A stretch of DNA of 64,000 nt, taken from positions 191 through 64,190 of the forward strand of contig PLOF01000050.1 in assembly GCA_003142035.1 (NCBI GenBank). The letters run 5' to 3'. The notes beneath the pieces were generated by a model. The model saw only the letters and a program-made list of their open reading frames with translations, did no database searches and was not told the DNA's origin. This stretch comes from Candidatus Dormiibacterota bacterium (GTDB lineage: Bacteria > Chloroflexota > Dormibacteria > Aeolococcales > Aeolococcaceae). The translations under genes and the position numbers were made by a program. Shown here in pieces: positions 1 through 42,650 of the stretch (positions within the stretch are counted from its first letter, which is position 1; each line of letters starts with the position of its first letter).

Positions 1-650
<650 letters not shown>

Positions 651-924: not shown

Positions 925-5301
<4,377 letters not shown>

Positions 5302-10600: not shown

Positions 10601-12279
10601 TCGAGCCCTCCACCGTAGCCGCCCACGACGGCGCCGGGACGGGCTCCCCGCGTCCCGGGTCGCGCGCGGTCAACGCGGCCTGGCTCCTCGGCGGCTTCTG
10701 CATCACCCTCATCTTCACGGTGCAGCTCTTCCGCTACGGCGACGAGTGGTGGCACATCGCTCTGGGCCGGCTGATCCTGAGCCACGGCATCCCCTCGGTC
10801 GAACCCTTCAGCTTCGTGGCGACCCAGCACCCCTGGGTGGAGCAGCAGTGGCTCTACGAGGTGGTCCTTGCCACCCTGGTCCGGCTCGGAGGCGACGGCC
10901 TCGCCTCCCTGGCCCTGGGGCTGGTCGGCAGCCTCGCCCTCCTCGTCGCCGCCCTCGCCGTCCCCCGGCGGGCTCACGTCCCGCGGGGTTGGAGCGCGGC
11001 CGCGATGGTCCTCTGCGGCCTGATGGCGGGCATGGCCCTCGGCGTCCGTGCCGAGACGGTGAGCGCCCTCGGCGTGGCACTGACCCTGCTAATCGTCCAG
11101 CGCTGGCGGGACGGCAACCGATGGGTGGTCTGGCTGCTGCCCCCGATGTACCTGCTCTGGGCCAACCTCCATGCCGGCTTCATCGCCGGGCTCGGGGTGC
11201 TGGCCTTCACCCTCGTCATCCATCGCGCCTCGCGAAACCGGACGTCGCCGGTCCCGGGGGGGCTCTCGCTGGCCGTGATCTGCGTGGGCGCCGCCGCCGC
11301 CGCGGTGCTCCTCGGCCTGGTTGCCGGCGCGGCGATCCTGGTCCTTCTCTGGGCGGTCTTCCGCCCCGCCCCCGTGGACCCGGGCGTCCGCCGCCGACCC
11401 CTGCTGATCGCATCGGTGACCGCCTCCGCCCTGACCCTGGTCAACCCGGCGGGGCCTGGCCTCTACCGGTACATCGCGGAGACGGTGAGCAACCCGATCC
11501 TCTCCCAACTGGTCTCCGAGTGGCAGTCGCCGAACTTCCACGACATGCTGACCCGGCTGATTGAGGTGGTCGCGGCCCTCCTGGTCCTGGTGTGGCTGCT
11601 CGGCCGGCGGCCGCGTGTGCCCGACATCCTGCTGGCCACCGGCGCCTTCCTCCTCACCCTCCAGGCCGTCCGCAACGTCAGCCTCTTCGCGGTGGTGGCG
11701 ATCCCCATCCTCTCCGAATACGGCGCGGCAGCCTGGGCGGCCCGAGCCCCGGTCCATCTGCGCATCCGCCTCGGCACCCGGCTGCCCGGAGCGGTGGCCC
11801 TGGTCGCCGCGATCGCGGTGAGCGCCGCCTCCATCGCGGTCATGGCGCCCCAGGCGTCGGCCTCGTCGGCTGTCCAATTCGAACAGACCCACGAGCCCGA
11901 AACCGCCGCCGACTACGTCGCCGCCCACTTTCCCGGGCAGCGTCTCCTCAGCTCGGACGGCGACGCCGGCTACCTCGCCTACCGCTTCCCCACCGGGCGC
12001 GTGGTCTTCTTGTACGACGAGATCGGCGTCTTCGGCACCGGTCCGCTGACGGACTACACCGACATCGCCACCATCTCCAGCACCTGGAAGGCGTTGCTCG
12101 TCAAGTACGACCTCCACCACGCCGTCCTCGGATCCCATAGCGCCGACGTCTCCGCCCTGCTGGAGCTCGGCTGGACGGTCAACTGCTACGAGGCGCCGAG
12201 CGGCCGGGTGGTCATGTCGGCGGGCGGCTCGCCCCCCGCCTCGCCTCCTCCCCCACCGTCTGACGCCCCCGCCTGTTAG
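10597..12279 (+). CDS. Large polytopic membrane protein, paralog 2 of 8834..10600
   Basis: Same architecture and motifs as paralog 1 (GDEWWHIALG..EPFSF..QQWLYE; SEWQSPNFH versus LEWQSPDFH). GTGA start/stop overlap with paralog 1. Confidence 0.75.
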   Translation: MIEPSTVAAHDGAGTGSPRPGSRAVNAAWLLGGFCITLIFTVQLFRYGDEWWHIALGRLILSHGIPSVEPFSFVATQHPWVEQQWLYEVVLATLVRLGGDGLASLALGLVGSLALLVAALAVPRRAHVPRGWSAAAMVLCGLMAGMALGVRAETVSALGVALTLLIVQRWRDGNRWVVWLLPPMYLLWANLHAGFIAGLGVLAFTLVIHRASRNRTSPVPGGLSLAVICVGAAAAAVLLGLVAGAAILVLLWAVFRPAPVDPGVRRRPLLIASVTASALTLVNPAGPGLYRYIAETVSNPILSQLVSEWQSPNFHDMLTRLIEVVAALLVLVWLLGRRPRVPDILLATGAFLLTLQAVRNVSLFAVVAIPILSEYGAAAWAARAPVHLRIRLGTRLPGAVALVAAIAVSAASIAVMAPQASASSAVQFEQTHEPETAADYVAAHFPGQRLLSSDGDAGYLAYRFPTGRVVFLYDEIGVFGTGPLTDYTDIATISSTWKALLVKYDLHHAVLGSHSADVSALLELGWTVNCYEAPSGRVVMSAGGSPPASPPPPPSDAPAC

Positions 12280-12306
12280 CGGGGTGCGCCAAGAGCCCCG
12301 AGGCTC

Positions 12307-13446
12307 CTACCCCACCTGCCCGTCAACGCCGCGGGCCAGGATCCGGGCCGCGATCCGGAATGCCTCGCCGCTCAGCGAAGCGGACCCCTGGCGCCGGGCC
12401 TCGTCGCCAATCTGACGGAGGACGGCCGCCGCCATCTGCCGCTCCTCGGCGGTCCGGGCGGCCAGGGCAGCCTCCTGGGCATAGGCGAGGGCCACCACCA
12501 GACGACCGCCCTCCAGAGCGACGGCGGCGAGAGCACGGAGCGCCTCCCCCCGCAGGGTGTCGTCGCCCAGCTCGTCGGCGCTGGCTCGGCAGTCCTCGAG
12601 ACAGCGCGTGGCCCGGTGCGCCTGGCCGCGCCGCCAGTGGCTGATGCCGAGGTCATGAAGGATTTCGGCCACGCCGTGCGCGTCGAGACCGGCTTCGCGG
12701 AGCGGCATCGCCTGACGAAGGCGAGCCTCCACGTCGGCCCAGCGCTCCTCCGCGGCCGCCTGGGACGCCAGGGTGACCAGCCCGTCGGCGACCACCTGGA
12801 CGTGGGGACCCTCAGGCACCTCCATCGCACGCTGGAACATCCTCTCCGCACCGGCGGCGTCCCCGCGGGCGGCGGCCAGACGACCAAGGTTGGCGGCTGC
12901 GGCCGCCCGCGTGTGAGGGTCGCCCCGCTCCAAGGCCTCCTGCCAGCGAGCCGCCGCGGTCTTGGCCTCGCCATTCTCCGCCGCCGCGGAGCCGAGCTCG
13001 AGAAGGACCGCAGCCAGCACCTCCGGGGGGCTGCCTCCGGAGAGGCGCTCGGCCGAAGCCAGGTAGGCGGCACCGAGTCCAACGTCGAGACCGGTGACGA
13101 GAGCGCGGCCAAGCGCGGCCAGAGCCACCGCGCAGGCGCCCGGGTCGGCGACCGCCCACTGCTCCAGTGCCAACCTGACGCTCGCCTGCGCCTCTGCCCT
13201 GGCTCCCTGCAGCTCCTCGCAGAGACCGCGCCCCAGCAGCTCGAGACCGCGCCACGCGGGCGATGCCTCGGCCGCCAGCAGCCGATCAAAGGCCGTGGCG
13301 GCGCCGGCTCCCTCCACCTGCAGTCGGTTCAGCGCGGCCAGCAGCGGAGCCGGGAGCGAGGCCGCATCGGCCGGTGTAACGGGGGGTGATGCCGCATCGT
13401 TACCGGAAGCGCTGGTGCCCCCGCCCAAGGCGGACAGTAGGCTCAT
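12307..13446 (-). CDS. Ala-rich TPR-like repeat protein
   Basis: Repeated helical A/L/R-rich 34-residue-like units. Trimmed to ATG 13446 (MSLLSALGGG). Confidence 0.6.
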   Translation of the reverse strand: MSLLSALGGGTSASGNDAASPPVTPADAASLPAPLLAALNRLQVEGAGAATAFDRLLAAEASPAWRGLELLGRGLCEELQGARAEAQASVRLALEQWAVADPGACAVALAALGRALVTGLDVGLGAAYLASAERLSGGSPPEVLAAVLLELGSAAAENGEAKTAAARWQEALERGDPHTRAAAAANLGRLAAARGDAAGAERMFQRAMEVPEGPHVQVVADGLVTLASQAAAEERWADVEARLRQAMPLREAGLDAHGVAEILHDLGISHWRRGQAHRATRCLEDCRASADELGDDTLRGEALRALAAVALEGGRLVVALAYAQEAALAARTAEERQMAAAVLRQIGDEARRQGSASLSGEAFRIAARILARGVDGQVG

Positions 13447-13476
13447 CGACGTGAACCGGAGGATCGGTGCGCCTCG

Positions 13477-14838
13477 ATGAGCGTGACTCCGCAGGTCGCG
13501 ATCGGCAACGCGGCCGCGCGCCCGCCGGCCGAATCGGCAGAGGGGACGCCGCACCGGACGATTCCTGACCTTCCGACGGTCCTCGACCGCGACCGCCGCG
13601 CAGGCATCGAGCGGGTGATCGAGCTGGCACGCTGGATCGTGCTGATCTTCGCCGCCGTCAGCGTGAACTTCCCCGGCGAGACCACCCCCAACCGCCCTGA
13701 GGTCGACCTGCTGCTCGGCATCTGGGCCATCTTCACCCTGGCGACGACCATCGCTCTCCTGACCAACCGCCTGCCCACCCGACGGCTACAGTACGCCATG
13801 CTCGCGCTCGACATCGCGATCGCGAGCGGCCTCGTCGACCTGACCGGGGGCTTCACCTCACAGCTGGGCCTCGTCTTCTACCTGGTCATCATCGCCAGCA
13901 GCCTCCGCTTCGGCTTGGGCGGCAGCCTCTTCTGCGCGGCGACCATCGCGGCGATCTACCTGGGCATCGGCTTCGCGACCGGCGGCCGGCTCAACGGCTC
14001 GACCGTCAACCTCTTCGCCGAGCGCCTCTTCCTCTTCATGGTCATCGCACTGATCACCGGGCTGATCTCCCGCGAAATGGTCCAGAGCCGGGCTCGCCAG
14101 CTCACTCATACGTACGAGCTGGAGGCGGTCGCCTTCAACGAGCTGCGCGAGGTCGATCGGATCAAGAGCGACTTCATGATGCTGGCGTCGCACGAGCTGA
14201 GGACCCCGCTGACCAAGATCAAGGCGTGGGTGAGCCTGATGCAGGACGCCGGCGACCGGCTCCCCATGAGCGCTCGTGACGAGGGCATCCGGGAGCTGCG
14301 TTCGGAGTCCGAGCACCTGGCCCGGCTGACCGACAACCTGCTGGCGATCGCCCAGCTCGAGTCCGGCGAGATCCGCCTCAAGACCACTGCCTGCGAGCTT
14401 GACGTCGTGATCGGCGACACCATCTCGCGCTTCATCGAGTCCGCCGATCGCAGCCGTTTCGTGGTCAACATCCTCCCCGACGCCTGCCGAGCGATGGCCG
14501 ACACCGAACGCCTCTCGCTCACCCTCGCCTGCCTCATCGACAACGCCCTGAAGTTCTCCCCAGAGTCGGAACAGGTGACCATCTCCACCCGGCGCGACGG
14601 GCCCTACGTGCTGATCGGGGTTCGCGACCAGGGTCGGCGCATCCCCGAGGCCGAGGCCGACCGGGTCTTCGCCTCCTTCTACCAGGTGGAGTCCCCGCTG
14701 CTCCGGCAACGCGGAGGCTTCGGGGTGGGCCTTTACCTGGCGCGACAGCTGGTGGAGCGAATGGGCGGCAGGATCTGGATCGACAATACCCGGGTCCGTG
14801 GCAACACCTTCATCGTCGCCCTGCCGGGGCAGTTTTAG
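13477..14838 (+). CDS. Membrane sensor histidine kinase (HisKA + HATPase_c)
   Basis: About 5-6 N-terminal TM helices, H-box FMMLASHELRTPLT, and G boxes (GGFGVGLYLA). Confidence 0.88.
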   Translation: MSVTPQVAIGNAAARPPAESAEGTPHRTIPDLPTVLDRDRRAGIERVIELARWIVLIFAAVSVNFPGETTPNRPEVDLLLGIWAIFTLATTIALLTNRLPTRRLQYAMLALDIAIASGLVDLTGGFTSQLGLVFYLVIIASSLRFGLGGSLFCAATIAAIYLGIGFATGGRLNGSTVNLFAERLFLFMVIALITGLISREMVQSRARQLTHTYELEAVAFNELREVDRIKSDFMMLASHELRTPLTKIKAWVSLMQDAGDRLPMSARDEGIRELRSESEHLARLTDNLLAIAQLESGEIRLKTTACELDVVIGDTISRFIESADRSRFVVNILPDACRAMADTERLSLTLACLIDNALKFSPESEQVTISTRRDGPYVLIGVRDQGRRIPEAEADRVFASFYQVESPLLRQRGGFGVGLYLARQLVERMGGRIWIDNTRVRGNTFIVALPGQF

Positions 14839-14993: not shown

Positions 14994-15830
14994 ATGAGCC
15001 CCTTCACGGACTACAGCATTCTCAACCCGGCAGCCTCATTGGGCGGCCGCACCGGGGTCGCCGAGGCGACCGTGCTCGTCGTCGACGACGACCCCTCGAT
15101 GCACGACATCCTCACCGTCCTCGGGCAGCAGCACGGCTTCAGCATCCAGTTTGCGGAGGATGGCCTGGACGGCGTGCGTCTCGCCGAGTCCAGTGACATC
15201 GACCTGATCATCCTCGACCTGACCCTGCCGGGCCTCACCGGGTTCGACGTCTGCCGGCGCCTCCGGGCCGCCGGTGTCGAGGTCCCGATCGTGATGGTCT
15301 CCGCCAGCTCCGACCCCGTGGACGTCGTGGTCGGGTTGGAGATCGGCGCCGACGACTACATCATCAAGCCCTTCGAGGTCAGAGAGCTCGCCGCGCGTAT
15401 CAACGCCAAGCTCCGCCGTCAGCGGACGACCCAGTCCCAGGTCCGGCCGGGACGCCTCAAGTTCCCCGGACTGATCGTCGACGTGGGCCGCCACGAGGTG
15501 CTGCGCGACGGCAAGCCGGTCACCCTCACCCCCACCGAGTTCGACCTCCTGGCGCTCCTCTCGGCCTCGCCGGGACGGGTCATCTCGCGCTCCGAGATGA
15601 TCCAGAAGGTGTGGGGCCAGGGCGCCGATCTCGACCTCCGCTCGGTGGACGCACACGTGTACCGGCTGCGCCGCAAGATCGAGCCGGAGGGACCGCGTCC
15701 CACCTACATCCACGCCGTCCCCGGGATCGGCTACCGCTTCGAGCGGCGGGGCCTCAACGAGCGCCTCGCCAAGGCTCAGGAGATCCCCCCCGGGGCCAAC
15801 GGCCTCCAGCCGGTCGCGGGCCAGAGCTGA
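14994..15830 (+). CDS. OmpR/PhoB-family response regulator
   Basis: Receiver (VLVVDDD..ILDLTLPG..KPF) plus a winged-helix domain (LTPTEFDLLALL..VDAHVYRLRRKI..GIGYRF). ATG 14994 follows GGGAACGACAGG. Confidence 0.9.
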   Translation: MSPFTDYSILNPAASLGGRTGVAEATVLVVDDDPSMHDILTVLGQQHGFSIQFAEDGLDGVRLAESSDIDLIILDLTLPGLTGFDVCRRLRAAGVEVPIVMVSASSDPVDVVVGLEIGADDYIIKPFEVRELAARINAKLRRQRTTQSQVRPGRLKFPGLIVDVGRHEVLRDGKPVTLTPTEFDLLALLSASPGRVISRSEMIQKVWGQGADLDLRSVDAHVYRLRRKIEPEGPRPTYIHAVPGIGYRFERRGLNERLAKAQEIPPGANGLQPVAGQS

Positions 15831-15877
15831 TCATTTCCTGCACCGGCCATGCCCGGGATGAGGGGAGGCCGCCAGGT

Positions 15878-16279
15878 TCAGGCCAGACCGCTGTGGTGAC
15901 GGCGCGGAGCGCGACGGTGTTGACCGTCCGGCTGCTGAAGCACCCACTGACCCCGCTCGTTGAGCTCAGCCGGCCGAGCGTCCACGAGCTGATTGGTGAG
16001 GAGCGACAGCGTCCTGCCCTGGGGCAGCGAAAAGTCGAGACAGGGCATGACGTCGCCGCTCCAGACGCGACGCTCCGTCTGGCCGCCGTAGATCGCCACG
16101 CTGCGGGTGACCCTGCGCTGGCTGGATCCGCCCACGGAATACGAGATCCGGTACATCTCTCCCGATCGCAGCACGAAGTGGTCCACGGGGTTGGCTTCGT
16201 TCTCGCGGAAGCCATCCCGGGTCAGGCGACGGCGCGGGGTCGTATCAGAGCTACTGAAGAGAGTGGGTTGTACGGTCAT
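15878..16279 (-). CDS. Hypothetical protein (134 aa)
   Basis: This is the C-terminal part of ORF 15878..16741. It has high third-position GC from ATG 16279 onward. The upstream part of that ORF is antisense to parA. Confidence 0.5.
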   Translation of the reverse strand: MTVQPTLFSSSDTTPRRRLTRDGFRENEANPVDHFVLRSGEMYRISYSVGGSSQRRVTRSVAIYGGQTERRVWSGDVMPCLDFSLPQGRTLSLLTNQLVDARPAELNERGQWVLQQPDGQHRRAPRRHHSGLA

Positions 16280-16492
16280 CTTGATGCGATTATCCGGGGC
16301 GGCTCCAGCCATTCCGGCAGACGCCGGGTCGCGGGCGCGTAACGGTCGGGTCGCCATTCGCCGGCCCCGAGCCACCAGGAGCGCCGCCACACCGCTTTCG
16401 CAGGCAAGATACGACGGGGCGAATCGGACGCCTGACGTGACCGGATTTGACCAAGGTTCGGTGGCGTGACAGCTGCAGCCCCGGAGGTGAGC

Positions 16493-17260
16493 ATGGGCAT
16501 CGGGATCGCCTGCGTGTCCGGGAAGGGTGGGGTGGGCAAGACGACCACCGCCATCAACCTGGCGGCGGCTCTCGCCGAGCGCGGCCGGCTGGTGCTGACC
16601 GTGGACTGCGACCCGCAGTCCAATCTCACGAGCGGCCTGGGGCTGAACCCCTACGAGGTCCAGCCCAGCCTGGGCGACGTGCTCATCGGTCGGGCGACAG
16701 CGGGCCAGGCCATCGTCACCACCGAGTGGGCAAACCTGCATCTGCTCCCCGCGACGCCCGACCTCACCGCGACCGAGGCGGAGCTCCCCTCAGGGCTGCA
16801 CCGGGAAACCTTGCTGCGCGACGCCCTGGACCGGGACGGGACCTCGGCCGCCTACGACTTCATCCTCTACGACACCCCGCCCAACTTCGGTTTCCACACC
16901 GTCAACGCCCTGGCCGCGACCAACTACGTGATCATCCCGCTCCAGATGTCGGGCTTCGCCGTCCGCGGGCTCAAGGAGGTGCTGCGGGCGGTCAACCTGG
17001 CGCGCAGCCGGCTCAACCCAGAGCTACAGGTGCTCGGCATGGTGCCCACCTTCGTCAACCTCCGCACCAACTTCAGCCAGCAGCTCCTGAGCGGGCTTGC
17101 CGACCTGGCCGGACTGCGCATCTTCCAGACCCTGATCCCTCCGACCGTGAAGCTCCAGGAGACGTCTCTGGCCGGTGTCCCGATCGTCGCGTACGCCCCC
17201 ACCTCGAAGGCGGCCGCAGCGTACCGGCAGCTGGCCGAGGAGGTCCTCCAGGTTGTCTGA
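16493..17260 (+). CDS. ParA/Soj-family ATPase
   Basis: Deviant Walker [17 protein letters not shown], plus DCDPQ. ATG 16493 lies 5 nt after GGAGGTGA. Confidence 0.9.
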
Positions 17261-17903
17261 TCCTTCCGAGGTCGAGGGCACCCCGAGCGACGCCGCCAGC
17301 CTCGCTCTTCACGCCGGTCCCCTGGCCCGCTGGCTGGCCCCAACGTCCCAGTCACGGCTGGAGCGCATCCCCTGCAGCGATGTTGACACCCGTCCGTGGC
17401 CCGACCCGCCGGGCGGCGATTTGCTGGCTCTCACCCGCAGCATCCGCCACCGCGGCATCGTGGAACCGCTGCTGCTCCGCCCGACCGAGGGGTCGCGCTT
17501 CCAGGTCGTGCTGGGTGCCCGCCGGCTGGAGGTGGCTCGCCGGTTGGGTCTGACCGAGGTCCCTGCCATCGTTCGAGAGCTCGACGAGGCGGAGGCCACC
17601 CTGGTCGCGGTCTGGAACGCCCTGCCCCGCCTGCAGCCCGGACAGATGATCGAGGTGGCGGCGCGCCTGACCGCGGCCGGTGTGACCGAGGCGGAGATCG
17701 CCCTCCTCCTCGCCAGCGGAGATCCGGAGACCCTCCCCGGGCCACCCCGCGACTGGCCTCTCCGCGCCGACTCCGTGCCGCTCCGCTTCTCCGGTTCGAT
17801 GACGCCAGTGCACCGCCTGCTGGACGCACTCGGGCCCGAGCGGAAAGCGGCACTCTCGGCACTGCACGGCGTCGACCCCGCGCGGCTCGCCGGCTCCGTC
17901 TGA
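17253..17903 (+). CDS. Short ParB-like protein (ParB N-terminal domain plus HTH)
   Basis: [35 protein letters not shown] matches the ParB box region. The proposed TTG start at 17253 overlaps the parA stop and is uncertain. Confidence 0.65.
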
Positions 17904-17946
17904 GAGGATCGTCGCAACCCGAACCGTCACCTGGGATGAATGCCGC

Positions 17947-18537
17947 GTGACCACCCGCAAGCCCAAGCTGGCGCACTCCGAGGAGGAGCTCCTCGAGCAG
18001 TGGGACTTCCTGGACCGGCTGGTTGAGAGGCAGGCGGCGCGGCTCCGAGCCGGGATCCAGGATGCGGAGGAACCCGATGAACCTGCCGCAGGGCTCGCCG
18101 AGGTGGACGGCCTGCGCCGGGACCTCGACCGCCTGCGGGCAGAACTGCGATCCGCGGAGGCGGCGCGCGCGGTCGCCGCCGAGGAGGCCCGGCGCTCCCG
18201 TGAGGCGCTCACGGCCCTCACCGCGACGCAGCAGCAGCGTCTGCCCGAGGAACATGCCATGCGCCAGCGTCACCGGACCCTGGAGCGCGAGGCGTCAGGG
18301 TGGAGAGAGCGCGCGGCGGCGGCCGAGCGAGAACTGACGGCCAGGGACGAACAGGCACGGGCGCTGGTGGCCGACCTCACCAGGCGGATCGGAGCGGCAG
18401 AGGCATCGCGCCAGCAGGCTGAGCGACGGCTCGCCGACGCTGCGGCTGGGCTGAATGCTGCCCAGGCCGAGATAGAAAGCCTGCACGAGCAGCTCGCCTC
18501 GGCGCAGCACGGCTTCTGGCGCTTCGGACGTCGCTGA
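17947..18537 (+). CDS. Coiled-coil protein (196 aa)
   Basis: Continuous heptad-like A/E/R/L-rich sequence. GTG start. Confidence 0.6.
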   Translation: MTTRKPKLAHSEEELLEQWDFLDRLVERQAARLRAGIQDAEEPDEPAAGLAEVDGLRRDLDRLRAELRSAEAARAVAAEEARRSREALTALTATQQQRLPEEHAMRQRHRTLEREASGWRERAAAAERELTARDEQARALVADLTRRIGAAEASRQQAERRLADAAAGLNAAQAEIESLHEQLASAQHGFWRFGRR

Positions 18538-18554
18538 GGCCGGCCCCCGGTCCT

Positions 18555-19331
18555 CTACGCGGGAGCGCCGGCAGTGGGATGCCGGCCCTGGGCCATGGCG
18601 ATGAACTGCCGCAAGGCCGCCGCCGGCACCGGCCGGGTGGCGACCTCGTGGAGCAGGCTCTTGGCCTCGTCGAGCAACTGCGGGTCGGGGAGCTCACCCT
18701 TCCCAGACGTGGCCACCACCCATCCCGACGAGAACCAGAGCACGGTCTCGAAGGCCAGCCCGCTCACAATCAGGCCATTGAGCAGCGAGTCGGTGATGCG
18801 GGAAAGCGGCCGCTTCGCGTTACTGACAACAATGCCCCGAATTCGCTCCAACACGCCTAGTTGCTCCGCGAGCCCGACCGTCAGCGCCGCAGCCCGCAGC
18901 GAAAGCAGGTCGAGCGCGGTCGGGATGACAATCCGGTCGGCCACCGACATGGGGCCCAGCAGCGACGGCTCATGAGGGTGCGTGTCGATCAAGACGACGT
19001 CAACATCTTCAAGCACAGGCTCGATAAGTGCACGAAGCTGCTGCTCATGCAGAGGCTCGTGGTTGAGGCTGCGGTGGCCGGGAACGGTCTTGATGCCGAG
19101 CGGGTGATCGACGAGCGCCTCTCGGAGGGTGAGTCGTCCGTGGAGAACGTCAGCGATGCTGGTGCTGCGCTTGGCCTTCTCCAGAGCGTTGCTCAGCCCC
19201 CCGGTGGGATCGAGGTCAATGGCGATGACGCGCAGGCCGCTGGCTGCCGCGGCTGCCGCCAGTGCGTAACTGGTAGTTGTCTTGCCAACGCCACCTTTCA
19301 GTGACGCGATTGTGATTATTTCTGCAGCCAC
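18555..19331 (-). CDS. Second ParA/MinD-like ATPase
   Basis: Walker [15 protein letters not shown], plus IDLDP. GTG 19331 gives VAAEIITIASLKGG. ATG 19403 is an alternative start. Confidence 0.8.
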   Translation of the reverse strand: MAAEIITIASLKGGVGKTTTSYALAAAAAASGLRVIAIDLDPTGGLSNALEKAKRSTSIADVLHGRLTLREALVDHPLGIKTVPGHRSLNHEPLHEQQLRALIEPVLEDVDVVLIDTHPHEPSLLGPMSVADRIVIPTALDLLSLRAAALTVGLAEQLGVLERIRGIVVSNAKRPLSRITDSLLNGLIVSGLAFETVLWFSSGWVVATSGKGELPDPQLLDEAKSLLHEVATRPVPAAALRQFIAMAQGRHPTAGAPA

Positions 19332-19350
19332 ACACGTAGAATATCTCGGG

Positions 19351-21180
19351 ATGGCAACAGCCGCACCCTTTGTCAAACTCCTGCGACAACTCGCATCAGC
19401 CAAAGACGACTATCGGACTGGTGCGCTCGACATCACCTGGGTCGGCGGCAGGGCGAGCCTGTTTCTGGTATTCGGGCAGCCAAACCACGCGGTCGCGGAG
19501 GTGGGTGACCGCCACCTGGAGGGGGTGGAGGCCCTGGCGGCACTCGTGACGCAGCTGCCACCGCGTTTTGAGCTGTCTCCCTGGCGCAAGGAGGTGGTGC
19601 GGACCGAGACGCTCAGCTGCACCCTCGACGAGCTGATGGAGCCGTTTGCCCAGCTGGCCGGCGCCGCGTCGCCGGGCGACGCCCTCGCGTCCGGCTCGGT
19701 CGGGTCGGGAGCCGCCAACGGCGGCTCAGCGCCCGAGACCGACTTCGGTCTCGCGGATTTCCCGCTGCTCCCGCTCGGGCCCTCCCTCTGGTCTGACGCG
19801 TCAGCGAGTGTCGTCCATCTCGACGTCCTGATCCCCAACCTGCCGGACGCGCTGATCGTCCTCACCGGGCCCAAGCTGCGTGCTGCCGCGATCGTCGTCC
19901 GTCACCAACTGATCGACGCGGTCTGGGTCGACGAGGAGGACCGCATGGTGGGCGAGGCCGCCGGCATGGCCGTGATGGGGGCACGCGTCGGCAGCGTATC
20001 CGGCTATCGGCTGGAGACTCCCAAGCTCGCCGAGGCCCTCACCATGCTCTGGCGCTGCCCGGCGGTCTACCGCGAGATGCCCGCCTCCTGGGTCAACGCC
20101 GACAACCTCCTCCAGGATCTCGAGGGGCGCCGCCGCGACAGCGCGATCGTGGTGACCGGTGGCGTCCGCGGGGTGGCCCTGGTCGCCGGCGGGAAACTGC
20201 TCGGTGTCTACACTGAGACCGACCGCCAACCGGTGGCATCGCCCGAGAGGCTGACCGAGCTTCTGCGGGACCCGCGCGCCAGGGTCACCCTCCGCCAGAG
20301 CCCGGAGGAGCGGCAGACCAATCACCTCCCCGAGACCGCCTACCACGCCTTTGTCGCGGACGCCGCCGAGGCACCGGCACCGCTCTCCGAGGTGCTCGCC
20401 GCCATCACGGCCTCCAGCCGGTACGCGGCCTCCGCGCTGCCTGCGACCGACCCGAGCGAATCCGTCGACGCCACCGCCAAGCTGGAGCTCACCCCCGAGG
20501 AGCCGGAGGCGGAGGAGGCGCAGTCCATGCCCGTCTCCGCACCGTCAGCCCCCGCACAACTCGTGGCTTCGAAGTGGGCGATGCCCGACGACCTCATGAC
20601 CTCCCCGGAGCAAACGCCTCCTGCGGAGGAGCGGGCCGCTCCACCCTCGGAGCGCCCAACGACCTTCTCCGAACCGGCTCCCATGACCTGGCCCGCGCCC
20701 CCGGTCGAGTCGGTCCCCACCATCCCGGTGGATCTCGGCGGCGCGTCAGGAGATCCGCCCTGGCCGCCCCTCCCCCTCGCCAACGTGAACGAGGAGGAGG
20801 GCACGCTGCCCGCGTGGGGTCAGACGTACAGCCCGGTCCCCGCCCCCGATGCCTCGCCCAGCGCGACCCCACAGGGTCCAGCGCAATTCGCGCAGTTCGA
20901 CTTCTCGCCTGCCCTGGAGGTCCTGGCGGAAGCCGGCGCGAGTGCCGACTTCGAAGGGATGAAGGCGGACCTGATCCAGATCGGCGTCCTCTGGCTGGGA
21001 ACAGACGGCGTGGCACCGGTGGCGGAGATGCTCCGCCGGACGCGGCCGTCCATTCAGGATGTGATGGCCACCATCGAGGCTATCAAGCACGTCGACCTGC
21101 CCGGTTTCGAGACCTCGGTGGTCCAGGCGATGGCTCGCGAGATGCACTACCACGCCGCTGAGTACCTGAGCGGCCTCTGA
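19351..21180 (+). CDS. DUF4388/PATAN-like N-terminal domain protein with a long Pro-rich linker
   Basis: The N-terminus (LLRQL..TGALDITWVGGRASLFLVFGQPNHAV..EGVEALAALV) follows the DUF4388 pattern. It is followed by a P/A/E-rich low-complexity stretch and a roughly 90-aa C-terminal domain. Confidence 0.65.
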   Translation: MATAAPFVKLLRQLASAKDDYRTGALDITWVGGRASLFLVFGQPNHAVAEVGDRHLEGVEALAALVTQLPPRFELSPWRKEVVRTETLSCTLDELMEPFAQLAGAASPGDALASGSVGSGAANGGSAPETDFGLADFPLLPLGPSLWSDASASVVHLDVLIPNLPDALIVLTGPKLRAAAIVVRHQLIDAVWVDEEDRMVGEAAGMAVMGARVGSVSGYRLETPKLAEALTMLWRCPAVYREMPASWVNADNLLQDLEGRRRDSAIVVTGGVRGVALVAGGKLLGVYTETDRQPVASPERLTELLRDPRARVTLRQSPEERQTNHLPETAYHAFVADAAEAPAPLSEVLAAITASSRYAASALPATDPSESVDATAKLELTPEEPEAEEAQSMPVSAPSAPAQLVASKWAMPDDLMTSPEQTPPAEERAAPPSERPTTFSEPAPMTWPAPPVESVPTIPVDLGGASGDPPWPPLPLANVNEEEGTLPAWGQTYSPVPAPDASPSATPQGPAQFAQFDFSPALEVLAEAGASADFEGMKADLIQIGVLWLGTDGVAPVAEMLRRTRPSIQDVMATIEAIKHVDLPGFETSVVQAMAREMHYHAAEYLSGL

Positions 21181-21203
21181 CCGGCCGACCTGGAGACTCA
21201 ACC

Positions 21204-21512
21204 GTGAACTCGGTGCTCAATGCCGTCACCGGACACGCCGCCATCCTGCTGGCTGTGGTGGCGATCCTCGAGGGGGTGCTCACCGCCTGGCTCTTCCGCC
21301 GCAACGACGAGCTGCGGATGCGGCTGCGCCGAGCCCGCGAGGCCGCCGACCAGGCGGCGCGAACCGCAGCGCTCGCCGCGCCAGGTGGCATCGACCCGGA
21401 GATCGTGATCCAGCTCATTCGCTCCGGTCAGTCTCCGACACTCGACGTGGTCCACACCCTCATGGAGCAGCGAGAGGCTGCCGATGCCGCCGCCGACCCC
21501 GCGGAGCTCTAG
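21204..21512 (+). CDS. Small single-pass membrane protein
   Basis: One TM (AAILLAVVAILEGVLTAWLF), high third-position GC, GTG start. Confidence 0.5.
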   Translation: MNSVLNAVTGHAAILLAVVAILEGVLTAWLFRRNDELRMRLRRAREAADQAARTAALAAPGGIDPEIVIQLIRSGQSPTLDVVHTLMEQREAADAAADPAEL

Positions 21513-22084
21513 GTGTCGATGTCCAGGTAGGCGAGCGCGGCCAGCTGCCAGGTGAGTTGGGCAGCCTCCTCCCGCAGCCGGTAAAGAGCGTCCTCTGTCA
21601 TCCGGAGCATCTGAACGCTCTGCCGGATCGACCACCCGGAGCGTTCCGTCACCGCCCCTGCGCCGAGCCGGCGGGGACGGCTGATGGGCCTGGGAGCATG
21701 CAGGGCCCATCCGGTGGGTGGCCCCCCGCGCGAGCTGGGCATGGGGGCCACCTGAAACTCGTCCGGCGGCTGGGGCGGCGCCGACGGGACTGCGGGCGGC
21801 CTTCCGGCCGGCTCGCGCATGACGGGGAGGCCTGCCGGCGCAGGAGGAGGGACCGAGACCCCGGCGAGGTCGAGCACACCGGCCGGCCAGACCATCTCGC
21901 CGCTCGCCAGAGCGGCCAGGGCGGCGGCCAGGTCCTCGCCCGTGTCGAAGACGCTCCCCTCGCCGAACCAATCCTCTCCGAGGAGCTCGTCGGCGGCTGG
22001 CGCGGGGAATTCGAAAGGCGGGAGCGTCACCACACACGCCTCCCCTCGCAGGCTGGGCAGCCTGAGCTCATGCAGTAGTCCCAT
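21509..22084 (-). CDS. Hypothetical protein with an excisionase/MerR-like HTH tail
   Basis: C-terminal WSIRQSVQMLRMTEDALYRLREE resembles short HTH_17-type domains. Trimmed to ATG 22084. Divergent from cpaF-1. Confidence 0.5.
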   Translation of the reverse strand: MGLLHELRLPSLRGEACVVTLPPFEFPAPAADELLGEDWFGEGSVFDTGEDLAAALAALASGEMVWPAGVLDLAGVSVPPPAPAGLPVMREPAGRPPAVPSAPPQPPDEFQVAPMPSSRGGPPTGWALHAPRPISRPRRLGAGAVTERSGWSIRQSVQMLRMTEDALYRLREEAAQLTWQLAALAYLDIDT

Positions 22085-22251
22085 GAACGGTGCTGAGGAG
22101 CACATGGTAGACGGGAGGCGCCCGGCGGCTTGGAAAAGATCGTGTATCGAATGTGTTGCCTTGCCCTACCATCGGTGGAGACGGGCGAGAATCGCCCTTG
22201 GCGGCCCTTCAGCTGGATGGCCGTCCGTGGTGCCCAAGAGGAGTCCCATCT

Positions 22252-23544
22252 GTGAGCGTCGCCGCCAACTCCCGCCTCGACAACCGCTACATGGAGGCCC
22301 TGGGGCCGATTCGGCCGCTGGTCGAGGACGACAGCCTGACCGAGATCATGGTCAATGGTCCCGAGATGGTGTACGTCGAGCGCAAGGGCAAGATCCTGCT
22401 GACCGACATCCGCTTCGATGACGAGGCCCACCTCATGCGGGTCATCGACACCATCGTCTCGTCGGTCGGCCGGCGGGTCGACGCGCGGACACCCCTCTGC
22501 GATGCCCGGCTCCTGGACGGATCGCGCGTCAACGCCTGCATCCCGCCGGTGGCCCTCGACGGCCCCCTGCTGACCATCCGGAAGTTCTCGAAGGATCCCT
22601 ATCAGGTTTCCGACCTGATCGGTTTCGGGACCATCACCCAGGAGGGCGCCTCGTTCGTCCAGGCGTGCGTCCTGGCCCGGGCCAACATCATCGTCTCCGG
22701 CGGCACCGGTACCGGGAAGACGACCCTCCTCAACGTCTGCTCCGGGTTCATCCCGATCGACGAGCGGATCATCACCATCGAGGACGCGGCCGAGCTCCAG
22801 CTCCACCAGGAGCACGTGTGCCGGCTCGAGTCGCGCCCGCCGGACGTCAACGGCGAGGGCCGCGTCAACATCCGCGATCTGGTCGTCAACTCCCTGCGGA
22901 TGCGCCCCGACCGCATCGTCATCGGCGAGTGCCGCTCCGGTGAGGCTCTCGACATGCTCCAGGCCATGAACACCGGCCACGACGGATCGATGACGACGAT
23001 CCACGCCAACTCTGCCCGTGAGACCCTCTCGCGGCTCGAGACCCTGGTCCTGATGGCCGGCATGGATCTGCCCCTGAAGGCCATCCGCCAGCAGGTTGCC
23101 AGCGCCATCAACCTGATCATCCAGCTGGCGCGCCTCAAGGATGGCTCGCGCAAGATCGTCTCGGTCACCGAGGTCGTGGGGATGGAGGGCGACACCATCA
23201 CCATGCAGGAGATCTTCAAGTTCGAGTCCAGGGGCGCCGATCCGGCGACCGGGAAGATCGTGGGCGACTTCAGCTCCACCGGCATCCGGCCGAAGATCAT
23301 CGACCGCCTCTTCGACATGGGGGTTCCCCTTCCGCCGCGTCTGGCCCAGCTCTTCCCCGATCGCCGCCAGCTTCAGCAGGAAGCGCTGATGGCGGCGGCG
23401 GGCAGGCAGATGGGCAACGGCGCTGCACAGCCGGCGCAGCCGCCTCCGGGCTTCGGCGGTCCTCCCGGGCTGGGACTGCCGCCGAGCATGCCGCCCGGGA
23501 TGGGGATGCCACCCGTCGGCCCCGGAGGATCGCGCGGCCGCTGA
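22252..23544 (+). CDS. cpaF: CpaF/TadA-type pilus secretion ATPase, copy 1 (short N-terminus, Pro/Gly-rich tail)
   Basis: Walker A GGTGTGKTT, Asp box, Walker B, His box (TGHDGSMTTIHAN). GTG 22252 lies 8 nt after AGGAG. Confidence 0.92.
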   Translation: MSVAANSRLDNRYMEALGPIRPLVEDDSLTEIMVNGPEMVYVERKGKILLTDIRFDDEAHLMRVIDTIVSSVGRRVDARTPLCDARLLDGSRVNACIPPVALDGPLLTIRKFSKDPYQVSDLIGFGTITQEGASFVQACVLARANIIVSGGTGTGKTTLLNVCSGFIPIDERIITIEDAAELQLHQEHVCRLESRPPDVNGEGRVNIRDLVVNSLRMRPDRIVIGECRSGEALDMLQAMNTGHDGSMTTIHANSARETLSRLETLVLMAGMDLPLKAIRQQVASAINLIIQLARLKDGSRKIVSVTEVVGMEGDTITMQEIFKFESRGADPATGKIVGDFSSTGIRPKIIDRLFDMGVPLPPRLAQLFPDRRQLQQEALMAAAGRQMGNGAAQPAQPPPGFGGPPGLGLPPSMPPGMGMPPVGPGGSRGR

Positions 23545-23622: not shown

Positions 23623-24816
23623 TCAGACCCCCAGACGCTCGAGGATGCGGTGCTCGTCGATCGGCGGGACCATCGGCCTCGCGATCAGGAAGCCCTGGCC
23701 CTGGGTCACCCCGATCTCCTTAAGGGTGCGCAGCTCCGCGTTCGTCTCGATGCCCTCGGCGACGATCGTCATCGCCGTCTCGCGGGCAAACGCCACCAGG
23801 GCGCAGGAGAGAGCACGCCGTGGCCGGTCGACGTCGATCCCCCGGGTCAGAGAGATATCGAGCTTGATGATGTCCGGGACCAGCAGCAGGATGTGGCGAA
23901 GGCTGGCAAAACCCGCTCCCGCATCATCGACGGCCACCCGGACGCCCGCGTGACGGAGCGGTTGAAGTGCCCGGTTCAGCGCCTCGTAGTCGCCGACCGG
24001 GGAGTGCTCGGTCATCTCGATGACGATGCGCTCGAGGGGCACCGCCCCCAGCAGCCGAGCGACGTCCCGCCGGAGCAGGGTGGACGGTGAGAGGTTGAGG
24101 GAGAGGTAAGAGGTACTGGGCAACGCCGGGAACCCCACCAGAGCCACGGCCAGCGCCGACGCCTCCAGGTCCTCGCGGAGGCCAACGTCGGACGCCTCCT
24201 CAAACCACTGCAGTGGCATCCCGGTGTCGAAGCGGGAGAGCGCCTCGACACCCGTGACCCTGCCCCTGGCAAGGTCAACGATCGGCTGATAGACGGGATG
24301 GATGCCTCCGTACTCGATCACCCCCTGGACCCGGGAGAGAACGCGGGCCCGCTTGACCTCGGCCTCCTCCTTACCCGCCAGCTGCTCGCTCAGCTCGCGA
24401 ACCACGGTGCTGGCCACATCCGGCGAGAACGCGGACTCGCCGCGGAGGACGCGCTGGATGGTCTGAGTGACCTCGTCCGGCATCGACCCCTTGACCAGAT
24501 ATGCGGTTGCTCCGGACTGCAGCATCTCCAGAATGCTGGCGCGGTCGCCATAGGCGGAGAGCGCGACGATCCGGGTGAGCGGGCTCTCGGCGCGGATGCC
24601 GCGGGCCGCGTGGGGCCCGCCACCTCCCGGCATCTTGACGTCGAGGATGGCCACGTCGGGCCGCTCGCGTGCGGCCATCTCGACGGCCTGGAGGGCATCC
24701 TCGGCCACCCCGACAACTTCGAGTCCATCCTCGCACTCGAGCAGCTCTCGGAGCGCCTCTCGAATGTTGGCATCGTCGTCCGCGATCAGGATCCGGGCCA
24801 AGGTTGGGGAGATCAT
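23623..24816 (-). CDS. Response regulator with EAL (c-di-GMP phosphodiesterase) output
   Basis: Receiver ILIADDD..ILDVKMPG plus EAL-domain motifs (VEALSRF, EMTE, DDAGAG, KLD, EGIE, QGF). ATG 24816 overlaps the kinase stop (ATGA). Confidence 0.9.
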   Translation of the reverse strand: MISPTLARILIADDDANIREALRELLECEDGLEVVGVAEDALQAVEMAARERPDVAILDVKMPGGGGPHAARGIRAESPLTRIVALSAYGDRASILEMLQSGATAYLVKGSMPDEVTQTIQRVLRGESAFSPDVASTVVRELSEQLAGKEEAEVKRARVLSRVQGVIEYGGIHPVYQPIVDLARGRVTGVEALSRFDTGMPLQWFEEASDVGLREDLEASALAVALVGFPALPSTSYLSLNLSPSTLLRRDVARLLGAVPLERIVIEMTEHSPVGDYEALNRALQPLRHAGVRVAVDDAGAGFASLRHILLLVPDIIKLDISLTRGIDVDRPRRALSCALVAFARETAMTIVAEGIETNAELRTLKEIGVTQGQGFLIARPMVPPIDEHRILERLGV

Positions 24817-26501
24817 GCCACGGACCCGAGGCCGGGCCGCGCCCCACCCTGCAGCGGTATCCAGGCGGTCACCACGGTGCCGCGGAGAACCCCCGCCTCG
24901 ACCCGCAGCCAGCCTCCGGCGACTTCGGCCCGCTCGCGCATGCTGGCCAGGCCGAGATGGCCGGGTAGGCTCTCGGCCGCGGCTCCGAGCCCGGCGCCAT
25001 CGTCGGTGATCCGCATCTGACAGCCATCGTCCCGTTCCTGCACAGAGACGCTGACATGACTCGCCGAGGCGTGTTTGACCACGTTGGCAATGGCCTCTTG
25101 GGCGACTCGATAGAGTGTCACTCTCGCCGCGGTGGTCAGTGCTCCCGGCTCCGAACCGGCGAGGCTCCACTCGATGCCCTCATCCTGCTGCACCTGGATC
25201 AGACGGTCACGAATCGTGCCGAGCAGGTCACCGTGATCAAGCCCGGTGGGGCGCAGGTTGAACATCAGACCCCGAAGGCGCGAAACCGCAGTCCCCACCA
25301 TCTGATCCATGGCGTCGAGGGTGCTCCGGGCCGCCTCGTCGTTGACCCGACGCCGGAGTGTCTGCAACCGAAGCCCGACGGCGGCGAGGATCTGCAGGGA
25401 GTCGTCGTGGATGTCGGCGGCGATGGTCCGGCGCTCGTCCTCATGCGCCTCGACAAGGAGGCGCATCAGCCGAAGACGCTCCCCACTGACGTGTTTCAGC
25501 TCCTCCAGGCTGCGTGCAAAATCTGCGGCGCTCCGCCGCTGCGCGCAATCGATGCCGAGGTAGTTGCCAAGTGCTGTGAGGTGGGCGGCGTGGGCGTCAT
25601 CGAAACCGGCGAAGTCCGGCGCGCTGATCTCGATGGCGCCGAGAGCCTGGTCGCCCTTCAGCACCGGAACACCCAAGGAGTCCCCCTCCGGGTGGGCGGA
25701 GCTCGCCCCCGAGAAGGACAATTCCCGGCTGCTGATCACCTTCGTCACCACGGCGGGTGGGTCAGCCGGCGTTGAGGGCTGTGTCATCGCGTCGTTGCCT
25801 GCACGACTCCAGGCAGCGCGGAGTCGCACCCCCCCCCGGACGTCAGACTTCCAGAACCTGACCTCGGTGCCATCGACGCTCACCCCTATCTGCTCCAGCG
25901 CTCCGAGGAGCGCGGTGTCCTCGTCGGACGAACCGAGAGCGCGGATGAACCGCAATTGACAGTCCTTCAGGAACTGTGCTCGCCGGCGCTCGGCGACGTC
26001 CTGTTGGAAGGCTGCCTGCAGCATCTGGTCGGCACCCGGTGCGGTGGCCTCGATGCGCATCAGCTTGCGGCCGAGCGCCTCCCTTTCGACCGCAGCACGT
26101 ACGGCCACGGGAAGGCGTGCCAACCGATCCGAGGCGAGGTAGTCGGCCGCCCCGCGTTCCACGAGCGCGATTCCGGCTGCCTCGTGCGAGGGGGCGCAAA
26201 CGACCACCACCGGGATGCTCACGTGGCGGCCGTGGATGTGGTCGAGCAGCGCCGCCGCCGACCAACCGGGCCGGCCGTCCTCAACCACCGCGGCGTCCCA
26301 ACCGGTGCCGAGGTCATCTGGCAACGAAGCCAGATCCGGCACCGCGAGGATCTCGATCCCGGGAGGGGCGCCCGGGCCTCTCAGAGCGCCCGTGATCACG
26401 GCTCCCTCGGCTGCGCACACGAGCACCCGGACAGACGGGACGGCTGGGCCGCTCCGGGCATGGGGAGAGCGGGCGCCGCCCACCGTCGGAGACGAGGACA
26501 T
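24813..26501 (-). CDS. Cytoplasmic histidine kinase: pseudo-receiver, GAF-like domain, HisKA_3, HATPase_c
   Basis: H-box EDERRTIAADIHDDSLQ and an ATPase N box (QEAIANVVKHA). The N-terminal receiver-like fold lacks the acidic pocket (VLVCAAEG). Confidence 0.85.
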   Translation of the reverse strand: MSSSPTVGGARSPHARSGPAVPSVRVLVCAAEGAVITGALRGPGAPPGIEILAVPDLASLPDDLGTGWDAAVVEDGRPGWSAAALLDHIHGRHVSIPVVVVCAPSHEAAGIALVERGAADYLASDRLARLPVAVRAAVEREALGRKLMRIEATAPGADQMLQAAFQQDVAERRRAQFLKDCQLRFIRALGSSDEDTALLGALEQIGVSVDGTEVRFWKSDVRGGVRLRAAWSRAGNDAMTQPSTPADPPAVVTKVISSRELSFSGASSAHPEGDSLGVPVLKGDQALGAIEISAPDFAGFDDAHAAHLTALGNYLGIDCAQRRSAADFARSLEELKHVSGERLRLMRLLVEAHEDERRTIAADIHDDSLQILAAVGLRLQTLRRRVNDEAARSTLDAMDQMVGTAVSRLRGLMFNLRPTGLDHGDLLGTIRDRLIQVQQDEGIEWSLAGSEPGALTTAARVTLYRVAQEAIANVVKHASASHVSVSVQERDDGCQMRITDDGAGLGAAAESLPGHLGLASMRERAEVAGGWLRVEAGVLRGTVVTAWIPLQGGARPGLGSVA

Positions 26502-35862: not shown

Positions 35863-36519
35863 ATGGAACGGAAGAGCAGACGATCGCTTCGAGTGGCCCT
35901 GGTGCTGGGCGCCGCCGTGGCCGGCACCGCCCTGGTCGGCTGGGGCGGGTTGGCGGCATGGAGTGCCTACACCGAGAACGCCGGCAACAGCGTCGCGGCC
36001 GGCACTCTCGCGCACAACAACTACGTCAGCTCCAACTGCGCGTCGGTCATCGGAGTGGCCCCGGTTGGCACCGGCCCCGGCTGGTGCTCCGTCCTGATCA
36101 CGGTCAACGGAGCTGACGCCGTGAACGGGAAGCTTCCCGCCACAGGCGTCGTCAAGATCGACAACACGGGCACCCTCTCAAGCACCTTTCAGATGAGCAT
36201 GCCGTCAGCCCCGGTCAGCTCTGGCGGAACCATCTGCGCGGACCTCACCCTCGCGGTCTCCGACCCCGACGCCGGGGCCCCGGGAACCCCCTACGCCGCA
36301 ACCGCGCTGACCAGCACGATGGGGCCGACCACGATCGACAACAATGCGAGCACTCCGAGCGCGACCTGGTCGCCCAACGGCACGGCCGGCACGGGCACCG
36401 GCGCGACGGGCAACACCTTCACCTTCACCGTGGCCGCCCTGACCAGCTTCGGAAACAACTACGCGGACGCCGGACAGAGCTGCACCTTCAGCATTCTCTT
36501 CACCCAGACGGCCGCCTAA
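35863..36519 (+). CDS. TasA/camelysin-like secreted protein with a SipW-type signal peptide, paralog 1
   Basis: N-terminus RRSLRVALVLGAAVAGTALVGWGGLAAWSAYTENAGNSVAAGTL parallels B. subtilis TasA (..GGGTWAAFND..FASGTL). The C-terminal CTFSILFTQT parallels TasA LQFSFEATQ. The start was set by homology with paralog 2. Confidence 0.8.
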   Translation: MERKSRRSLRVALVLGAAVAGTALVGWGGLAAWSAYTENAGNSVAAGTLAHNNYVSSNCASVIGVAPVGTGPGWCSVLITVNGADAVNGKLPATGVVKIDNTGTLSSTFQMSMPSAPVSSGGTICADLTLAVSDPDAGAPGTPYAATALTSTMGPTTIDNNASTPSATWSPNGTAGTGTGATGNTFTFTVAALTSFGNNYADAGQSCTFSILFTQTAA

Positions 36520-42609: not shown

Positions 42610-42650
42610 TCCCGGGAGTGCCGAAGGACAAACGGACGTAGGGCCCGGCA

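Follow-up and report, generated by a model that had tools for sequence, protein, structure and literature searches.

A conserved two-part ParA/MinD gene cluster beside Tad pilus ATPase genes in Dormibacterota, and its possible tie to the pilus motors

A stretch of 64,000 nucleotides of a Candidatus Dormiibacterota chromosome (contig PLOF01000050.1; this whole stretch is hereafter called the window) carries at positions 16493–21180 a cluster of five genes, coding in order for a Soj-type ATPase (ParA1), a short ParB-like protein, a coiled-coil protein, a second and divergent ATPase of the MinD/ParA family (ParA2) and a protein of 609 amino acids (aa), here designated as P609. We read the cluster as a two-part ParA/MinD system that is conserved and has a functional tie to the motors of the Tad pilus, a reading to which we assign a probability of roughly 45% on the basis of sequence comparison and of analogy with known systems. 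In broader terms, the cluster probably serves to place or control a protein machine and not to segregate DNA. An earlier annotation, made from the bare sequence and referred to as the original prediction, had placed the five genes where they are indeed found and had proposed a positioning or polarity module for a pilus; the genetic side of that proposal, namely the co-occurrence of the genes and their synteny with Tad ATPases, was borne out, whereas the function is argued from guilt by association and from analogy.

Conservation was surveyed with one genome per species, which gave 66 loci, all from Dormibacterota or from metagenome-assembled genomes (MAGs) labelled otherwise but having the same synteny; the presence of each gene was counted over the loci with enough flanking sequence (51 or 38). 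The conserved order runs from a histidine kinase gene and a response regulator gene, through a small gene on the minus strand, to ParA1, the ParB-like gene, the coiled-coil gene, ParA2 on the minus strand, P609, two small genes and CpaF1, a Tad/CpaF-type ATPase gene, with a second such gene, CpaF2, following further on in the minus strand. This order is kept even where P609 identity is down at 34–50%. ParA2 was found in 51/51 loci, histidine kinase and response regulator in 50/51, the ParB-like gene in 48/51, ParA1 and the coiled-coil gene in 47/51 each, and CpaF1 and CpaF2 in 37/38 each. Being conserved in dozens of species-level genomes, the arrangement is far above chance, and the gene-neighbourhood survey that had been proposed at the outset thus returned strong co-occurrence, next to two CpaF-type ATPases. 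Searches of the literature retrieved no description of this gene combination, nor of Dormibacterota pili, in line with the original prediction, which had not recognised it as a described system.

Four of the 51 lineages keep ParA2 and P609 without the trio of ParA1, ParB-like and coiled-coil genes at the locus, and in the minimal locus (L021) the histidine kinase, the response regulator, ParA2 (minus strand), P609, CpaF1 and CpaF2 (minus strand) follow each other with nothing in between. For this reason ParA2 and P609 form the core of the system, to which the ParA1 trio is added as an accessory operon, with the Tad ATPases as constant neighbours. At the locus L016 no CpaF gene lies within 10 kb, and a Flp-type pilin-like gene, recognised from its sequence and not by family search, is found nearby. 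Five distant full-length relatives of P609 had usable flanks (27–30% identity, on contigs of 42–55% G+C). In three of these five (L073, L075/L076 and L078) the gene is divergently adjacent to that of an ATPase 33–39% identical to ParA2 and 27–29% identical to ParA1, and the L075 contig also codes for a Flp pilin and for a further P-loop ATPase, likewise of ParA/MinD type. Since the distant relatives repeat the divergent pairing, the core ParA2–P609 pair is, to judge from this comparison, older than the Dormibacterota clade.

ParA2 (18555–19331, minus strand; 258 aa, GTG start) matches AAA_31 with an E-value (E) of 5e-21 and is encoded convergently with the coiled-coil gene, 17 bp separating the two stops, as the second, convergent ParA/MinD-like ATPase of the earlier annotation. 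It has an intact deviant Walker A motif (KGGVGKT), its GTG/ATG start is fixed by alignment and few proteins of the cluster are as well conserved, its identity across related loci being 73–97%. Its similarity to Soj, FleN and MinD is about the same (all around 1e-10, over the N-terminal two-thirds only) and it falls far under every NCBIfam cut-off, with 59–70 bits in the MinD models against the required 202–213. The moderate amphipathicity (hydrophobic moment, muH, of 0.56) of a motif conserved at its C-terminus, ALRQF..MAQGRR, gives a hint of membrane binding. It is well known that TadZ/CpaE, a MinD/ParA-family ATPase, places Tad pilus machines at the pole, and ParA2 resembles it in its family and in being encoded beside Tad ATPase genes. 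Unlike TadZ/CpaE, ParA2 has no N-terminal receiver domain, its 258 aa comprising the ATPase domain only, and it scores 30 bits with the model of the actinobacterial CpaE homologue (TIGR03815), whose cut-off is 154. Two proteins with receiver and MinD domains (REC+MinD), encoded at 49657–51006 (plus strand) and 51011–52246 (minus strand), fit TadZ/CpaE better. Since the window already has them close to the Tad core genes, ParA2 does not simply fill the place of a missing TadZ.

P609 (19351–21180, plus strand), whose ATG start was established from an alignment of about 60 genomes, was modelled with AlphaFold2 (AF2) as a protein with folded ends, both predicted with a local distance difference test score (pLDDT) above 90. 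At the N-terminus lie three alpha/beta domains (D1, residues 1–105; D2, 134–235; D3, 238–316) and at the C-terminus a conserved helical domain (520–606). Between them, the long Pro-rich linker reported previously is confirmed as a stretch of 185 residues (about 335–520) with predicted disorder, 19% Pro and 18% Ala, rich also in Ser and Glu, with an isoelectric point (pI) of 4.1. D2 is related to D3 (hhalign E 6e-5); D1 has no significant match to D2 (E 0.07). The C-terminal domain aligns, at corresponding positions but weakly, with the C-termini of short distant relatives (E 0.002–0.12). A Foldseek search of the PDB offered nothing convincing, its only structural matches being to sliding clamps; these were rejected (TM about 0.1, root-mean-square deviation about 19 Å) as a reflection of three tandem alpha/beta domains and not of homology. 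In three giant proteins, P0413 (1734 aa), P0431 (1343 aa) and P0436 (2200 aa), a segment that corresponds to part of D3 is repeated in tandem 9–13 times; this segment is therefore used elsewhere as a repeat unit.

The N-terminus of P609 had been described as matching the DUF4388/PATAN-like pattern, and this proved overstated for the protein of the window, which has no Pfam match even at E ≤ 10 and no NCBIfam match; what stood is a sub-threshold match to DUF4388 (PF14332) in 14 of 19 P609 homologues, the best reaching 24.9 bits where the gathering score is 25. When the three N-terminal domains were searched as a profile against 1.84 billion representative proteins, 250 of them matched at E ≤ 1e-3, and 73 did so at E ≤ 1e-30. 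Ordinary PATAN proteins, of which thousands exist, were not retrieved by this profile, and the distant matches that were scanned are devoid of Pfam domains, except for one further sub-threshold DUF4388. Because the profile finds few relatives, and these without Pfam domains, P609 founds a small unnamed family, and its PATAN likeness is best taken as a lead and not as membership. Compared with the PatA-type PATAN (DUF4388) regulators of cyanobacteria, P609 has a weakly PATAN-like N-terminus and a gene adjoining that of an ATPase of the PilB superfamily (CpaF), but it differs from them in having no receiver domain, in addition to the missing Pfam match and to a profile that does not reach PATAN proteins. 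PATAN domains are reported to bind PilB1, the extension ATPase of type IV pili, and PilC, their platform protein (bioRxiv 10.1101/2021.06.11.447907). Such binding would bear on P609 only if its weak resemblance to PATAN is genuine, in which case a contact with the motor would be plausible.

The two core genes are divergent and exactly 19 bp separate their start codons (19332–19350), where about 20 bp had been estimated before. The sequence and conservation of this spacer were followed in about 60 loci; together with its flanks it reads CAC-ACAC-GTAGAATAT-CTCGGG-ATG, the central GTAGAATAT being conserved in nearly all of them. On the plus strand, the hexamer TAGAAT (19337–19342), which is found only once in both strands of the window, ends 8 nt upstream of the ATG of P609, and on the minus strand TATTCT (19343–19338) ends 6 nt before the GTG of ParA2, so arranged that the two overlap by 5 bp as face-to-face −10 boxes. 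In loci having longer spacers (20–30 bp; for instance L018, L038 and L056) two separate TAnnnT boxes are found, each as far from its own start codon as in the short spacer. A scan for consensus sigma-70 promoters retrieved nothing, and the case for promoters thus rests on cross-species conservation, which constitutes good comparative evidence that two transcripts probably start from face-to-face overlapping promoters; with −10 boxes so close to both starts, the ParA2 and P609 mRNAs are probably leaderless. The overlap of the boxes would also make their occupancy mutually exclusive, RNA polymerase being probably unable to sit on both promoters at once, and ParA2 and P609 would therefore be tightly co-regulated. 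All genes of the cluster are present at low depth in contigs of a peat metatranscriptome, which are too short and shallow for 5' ends.

Turning to the accessory operon, ParA1 (16493–17260, plus strand; 255 aa), preceded by a Shine-Dalgarno sequence GGAGG, matches AAA_31 with an E of 4e-48 and has the deviant Walker A motif KGGVGKT. Its closest solved structures, all giving full-length alignments, are ParA 8ray (7e-50), Thermus thermophilus Soj (3e-46, residues 5–253) and Helicobacter pylori Soj (3e-40), and it lies under the cut-offs of every NCBIfam equivalog model. Judged by these alignments ParA1 is a genuine Soj-type ATPase, as annotated originally, and it has a basic residue at the position which we take to be that of Soj R189.

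The ParB-like gene (17253–17903, plus strand; 216 aa, ParB_N PF02195 E 1e-14) starts with a TTG at 17253, with a GGAGG 6 nt upstream, and overlaps the ParA1 stop by 8 nt, so that the short overlapping ParB-like protein of the original prediction was recovered as such. Its database orthologues are also of 216 aa, and the family comprises about 80 clusters, all of 204–237 aa and having ParB_N as their only domain, the canonical ParBs with HTH_ParB and ParB_C appearing in the same search at E of about 1e-8 or worse. In an alignment of 34 family members the GxRR / GxxRxxA motif is invariant (G88, R90, R91 and A95), whereas in the ENLQR box an invariant W121 replaces the catalytic Glu, the Asn position is occupied by N, S, T or A, and Arg alone is kept. 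A conserved N-terminal peptide including ARWLAPT, with (I/L)ERI at its end, was also seen in the alignment; it resembles the LGRGL peptide by which ParB activates ParA. The helix-turn-helix domain HTH_ParB (PF17762) had no match in the window protein, nor in any of the approximately 80 family clusters, while the distant canonical ParBs of the same search have it, and the C-terminal dimerisation domain (PF23552) had no match in the ParB-like protein, whose 216 aa compare with about 270–300 aa in canonical ParBs. In agreement, the AF2 model (pLDDT 77) consists of the ParB N-domain and two more helices, after which a disordered segment leads to a small helical part at the end; a complete helix-turn-helix domain is not present. 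The Foldseek top matches of the model were Noc, ParB and PadC (6ryk, E 3e-7), over about 100–130 residues.

The third gene of the operon (17947–18537, plus strand) codes for the 196-aa coiled-coil protein, recognised as such from the start and confirmed by its composition (A, R, E and L make up 62% of the residues), by a heptad-like periodicity and by family matches that are all to coiled-coil families and all sub-threshold. The N-terminal region of about 45 residues (aa 10–55) is conserved and the rod is variable. At the C-terminus (18511–18537) a strongly amphipathic, aromatic-basic tail, HGFWRFGRR (muH 0.72), could be a membrane- or partner-binding peptide.

The trio may also be read as a reduced, non-canonical system for chromosome segregation or nucleoid organisation, the proximity of pilus genes being incidental and ParA2 and P609 a separate matter. 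We consider this unlikely. Like chromosomal ParABS (Soj/Spo0J/parS), the operon joins a Soj-type ATPase with deviant Walker A, close to the chromosomal Soj of T. thermophilus, to a downstream ParB N-domain gene overlapping its stop, and the ParB-like protein shares with canonical ParB (Spo0J) the N-terminal domain with GxRR and the N-terminal peptide. Nor was another ParA/ParB pair found: no second canonical parAB of Dormibacterota turned up through relatives, in searches which could not prove absence. In these, the ParA1 homologues were saturated with orthologues down to 60% identity, the neighbourhoods of canonical ParBs among the distant matches were either Firmicutes noc-soj-spo0J or an unassigned MAG, and the cluster names gave zero Dormibacterota ParB. 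On the contrary, HTH_ParB, the catalytic Glu and the dimerisation domain at the C-terminus, all features of canonical ParB, are lacking in the ParB-like protein; 4 of 51 genomes keep ParA2 and P609 without having the trio at the locus; and the neighbourhood is not of the origin type, dnaA, rsmG, rnpA and plasmid or phage backbone genes being absent from the genes of the window in family scans, as had been claimed. No match to the parS sequence TGTTTCACGTGAAACA was found in the 64 kb of the window at up to 3 mismatches, and the parS-like inverted repeats whose presence nearby had been raised did not materialise, the direct and inverted repeats in 15800–21300 resembling chance matches or the P-loop coding sequence that is shared. 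The view that the cluster is other than the canonical chromosomal parAB is thus supported in part, at the locus itself.

A cluster that would position a protein machine can be compared with systems in which ParA-type ATPases have protein cargo, ParA/MinD ATPases being a general bacterial means of placing large structures. In Myxococcus xanthus, PomXYZ consists of the ParA-like PomZ moving on the nucleoid with a cargo of coiled-coil PomX and PomY. The cluster likewise pairs a ParA-type ATPase with a coiled-coil protein and a candidate activating partner, with no parS or DNA cargo evident; it differs in having no detectable sequence relation with PomX or PomY, in an activator candidate that is a ParB N-domain protein and in neighbours that are pilus and not division genes. 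In PadC, also of Myxococcus, a ParB-like CTP (cytidine triphosphate)-binding domain serves as a protein adaptor that connects ParA with bactofilins. As in our ParB-like protein, its ParB/Srx-type N-domain does without parS binding and is tied to a ParA ATPase, but in PadC the ParB-like domain is C-terminal and accompanied by a bactofilin-binding region, whereas the present cluster has no bactofilin gene and CTP binding by its ParB-like protein is putative. By analogy, the cluster appears most like these protein-cargo ParA systems (PomXYZ and PadC–ParA) and like TadZ-dependent pilus placement.

On these grounds a working model can be proposed, in which the protein–protein contacts, the matrix of each ATPase and the pilus as cargo are what we infer. 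ParA1 would cycle on the nucleoid as its matrix, as Soj-type ATPases do. The ParB-like protein, having lost its DNA-binding parts and kept the activating peptide and the nucleotide-binding motif, would be the ATPase-activating partner of ParA1, held on a protein scaffold instead of on DNA, and the coiled-coil protein of the same operon would be the obvious candidate for that scaffold. ParA2 and P609 would in turn recruit or regulate the Tad machinery (CpaF1 and CpaF2, or platform proteins) at a defined site of the cell, the folded N-terminal domains of P609 acting as binding module and its conserved N-terminal helix or C-terminal domain providing the contact with ParA2. The neighbouring two-component and cyclic di-GMP (c-di-GMP) signalling genes would control the system. 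In its most specific form, which we put forward as a speculation that is unlikely to hold in every part, a ParB N-domain nucleotide switch detached from DNA would combine with a Soj-type ParA and a coiled-coil scaffold in a parS-independent positioning of the Tad apparatus, with the ancient ParA2–adaptor pair as the link to the motor and its two partners expressed from mutually exclusive, overlapping leaderless promoters.

The same components could instead form a landmark system of the cell pole or of the division site, comparable with PomXYZ, MipZ or HubP, in which the pilus genes would be one of several neighbours or clients. A MinD/ParA ATPase with coiled-coil or disordered scaffolds is the general make-up of PomXYZ- and HubP-type systems, ParA2 is equidistant from MinD, FleN and Soj, and the folded ends of P609 are joined by a long linker, acidic and disordered. 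As in the polar hubs HubP and FimV, this acidic, Pro-rich region is encoded near ParA-like ATPases and pilus genes, but P609 has no LysM domain, no transmembrane segment and no match to the FimV C-terminus, the likeness being architectural only. We regard a landmark system as decidedly improbable, as neither ftsZ nor min (minC and minE included) nor any other division gene is present in the window, and the CpaF ATPases are the only machinery genes linked to the cluster across lineages. A partition and transfer module left by a plasmid or an integrative conjugative element (ParA, a ParB-like protein and a conjugal ATPase of TadA type) and fixed in the chromosome is very hard to sustain, in spite of the best NCBIfam model of both CpaFs being the "TadA family conjugal transfer-associated ATPase", below its cut-off, and of two distant P609 relatives adjoining TraG/VirD4-type coupling proteins, given that position and order on the chromosome are the same in dozens of species, that no integrase, relaxase or replication gene was found in the window, that base composition is uniform across it and that a pilus is indicated by the genes for CpaB, TadB, TadC and a signal peptidase.

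Several points weigh against a two-part ParA/MinD system tied to the Tad motors. The contacts between the proteins of the cluster are putative throughout, and the synteny was all seen within a single phylum, apart from a few metagenome contigs without assignment, so that part of it could be inherited gene order. Among the distant P609 relatives, two of the five full-length ones and a short two-domain one have no adjacent ParA gene, and two of these three (L072, 4522–6306; L077, 5004–6788), the short two-domain one being among them, adjoin the coupling protein genes of TraG/VirD4 type. The PATAN link is weak, the P609 of the window being without a DUF4388 match. Moreover, two REC+MinD proteins and a third MinD-like ATPase are encoded about 27–33 kb away, near the Tad core genes, and a dedicated Tad-positioning ATPase may thus already exist in the window. 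Finally, a canonical parAB elsewhere in these genomes could not be shown. As a separate observation, one of the two relatives next to coupling protein genes also has a neighbouring sortase gene.

Several of the genes that flank the cluster are conserved along with it. Gene choice was made by third-position G+C, the DNA being rich in G+C, and then checked against families and orthologues. Upstream, a sensor histidine kinase (13477–14838, plus strand; HisKA and HATPase_c domains by Pfam, with a PilS-like membrane domain) is followed by an OmpR-type response regulator (14994–15830, plus strand; REC and Trans_reg_C by Pfam, start inferred from orthologues) showing 76–99% identity across loci. The five genes of the original prediction are correct as a list, but three conserved small genes around them had been missed. 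The first (15878–16279, minus strand), divergent from ParA1 and present in 50/51 loci, codes for a protein of 133 aa without Pfam or NCBIfam match, whose alignment displays a conserved core of about 85 aa and a basic, Arg-rich C-terminal tail; its identification as a PilZ c-di-GMP receptor was rejected, the RxxxR-like stretch at the N-terminus being not conserved and PilZ giving zero matches. The second (21204–21512, plus strand; 37/38 loci) codes for a protein of 102 aa with no family match and with a hydrophobic N-terminal segment in its translation, a probable single-pass membrane protein. The third (21509–22105, minus strand; 34/38 loci) codes for a protein of 198 aa with only a weak winged-helix-like match at its C-terminus (HTH_29, E 0.047).

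The CpaF ATPase gene that had been noticed downstream is that of CpaF1 (22153–23544, plus strand; T2SSE E 2e-63), whose true start, from the N-termini of orthologues, is probably near 22252–22291; it scores 307 bits with the NCBIfam TadA-family model, under the cut-off of 373. After it come, on the minus strand and by Pfam, a REC-EAL response regulator of c-di-GMP phosphodiesterase type (23623–24810) and a GAF-HisKA_3 histidine kinase (24813–26501), and then CpaF2 (26634–28376, minus strand), with a long Pro-rich N-terminal extension and 335 bits in the TadA-family model. The Tad core genes CpaB, TadB and TadC lie at 41701–44560, and GGDEF/EAL proteins and additional two-component systems are also encoded in the window. 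Besides the two REC+MinD proteins of TadZ/CpaE type near the Tad core genes, a third MinD-type ATPase is encoded at 48024–49706 (plus strand), bringing the ParA/MinD ATPases of this 64-kb window to five in total.

Other features of the window were recorded apart from the cluster. G+C is about 69% along its whole length, the named homologues of its proteins belong to Candidatus Dormibacteria/Dormibacterota MAGs, and peat and permafrost metagenomes contain its DNA at 96–99% of sampled words. The end of rpoB and rpoC are found at its beginning (3–5301, plus strand) and nusG-rplK-rplA at 52254–54063 on the opposite strand. These genes usually form a single co-oriented block; here they are separated by about 47 kb on opposing strands, with the pilus, signalling and ParA region in between. 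Three paralogous secreted proteins of about 200 aa (35863–36519, 36763–37365 and 37539–38162, plus strand), with similar N-terminal signal-anchors and no family match, precede a signal peptidase I of archaeal/SipW type (38402–39694, plus strand), whose N-terminus is extended by a long Pro-rich segment, and together they may constitute a second, TasA-like fibre system. Two adjacent genes at 8834–10600 and 10597–12279 (plus strand), with stop/start overlap, code for proteins of about 560–590 aa having a polytopic look, with many hydrophobic stretches, and no significant family match. At 12280–13554 a plus-strand open frame of 370 codons (stop to stop) overlaps a minus-strand open reading frame of 415 aa, with atypical G+C by codon position (GC1 about equal to GC3). 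A terminator scan returned one site, not above chance expectation.

Each new type of partner of a ParA/MinD ATPase illustrates the fitting of one common motor to another cargo, and the present cluster would add to these in more than one way. A compact and conserved ParB N-domain protein without DNA-binding parts bears on whether the CTP switches of ParB type act on protein cargo, while P609 would represent a previously unnamed family of adaptors, paired with its own ParA-type ATPase in all 51 of the Dormibacterota loci counted. The overlapping face-to-face −10 boxes, with two probably leaderless mRNAs, would be a neat case of promoter competition built into a spacer. The fixed link with Tad motors concerns an abundant and essentially uncultured phylum of soil and peat, and the proteins of the cluster are small enough for in vitro reconstitution, so that the proposed system may be tested without culturing the organism.

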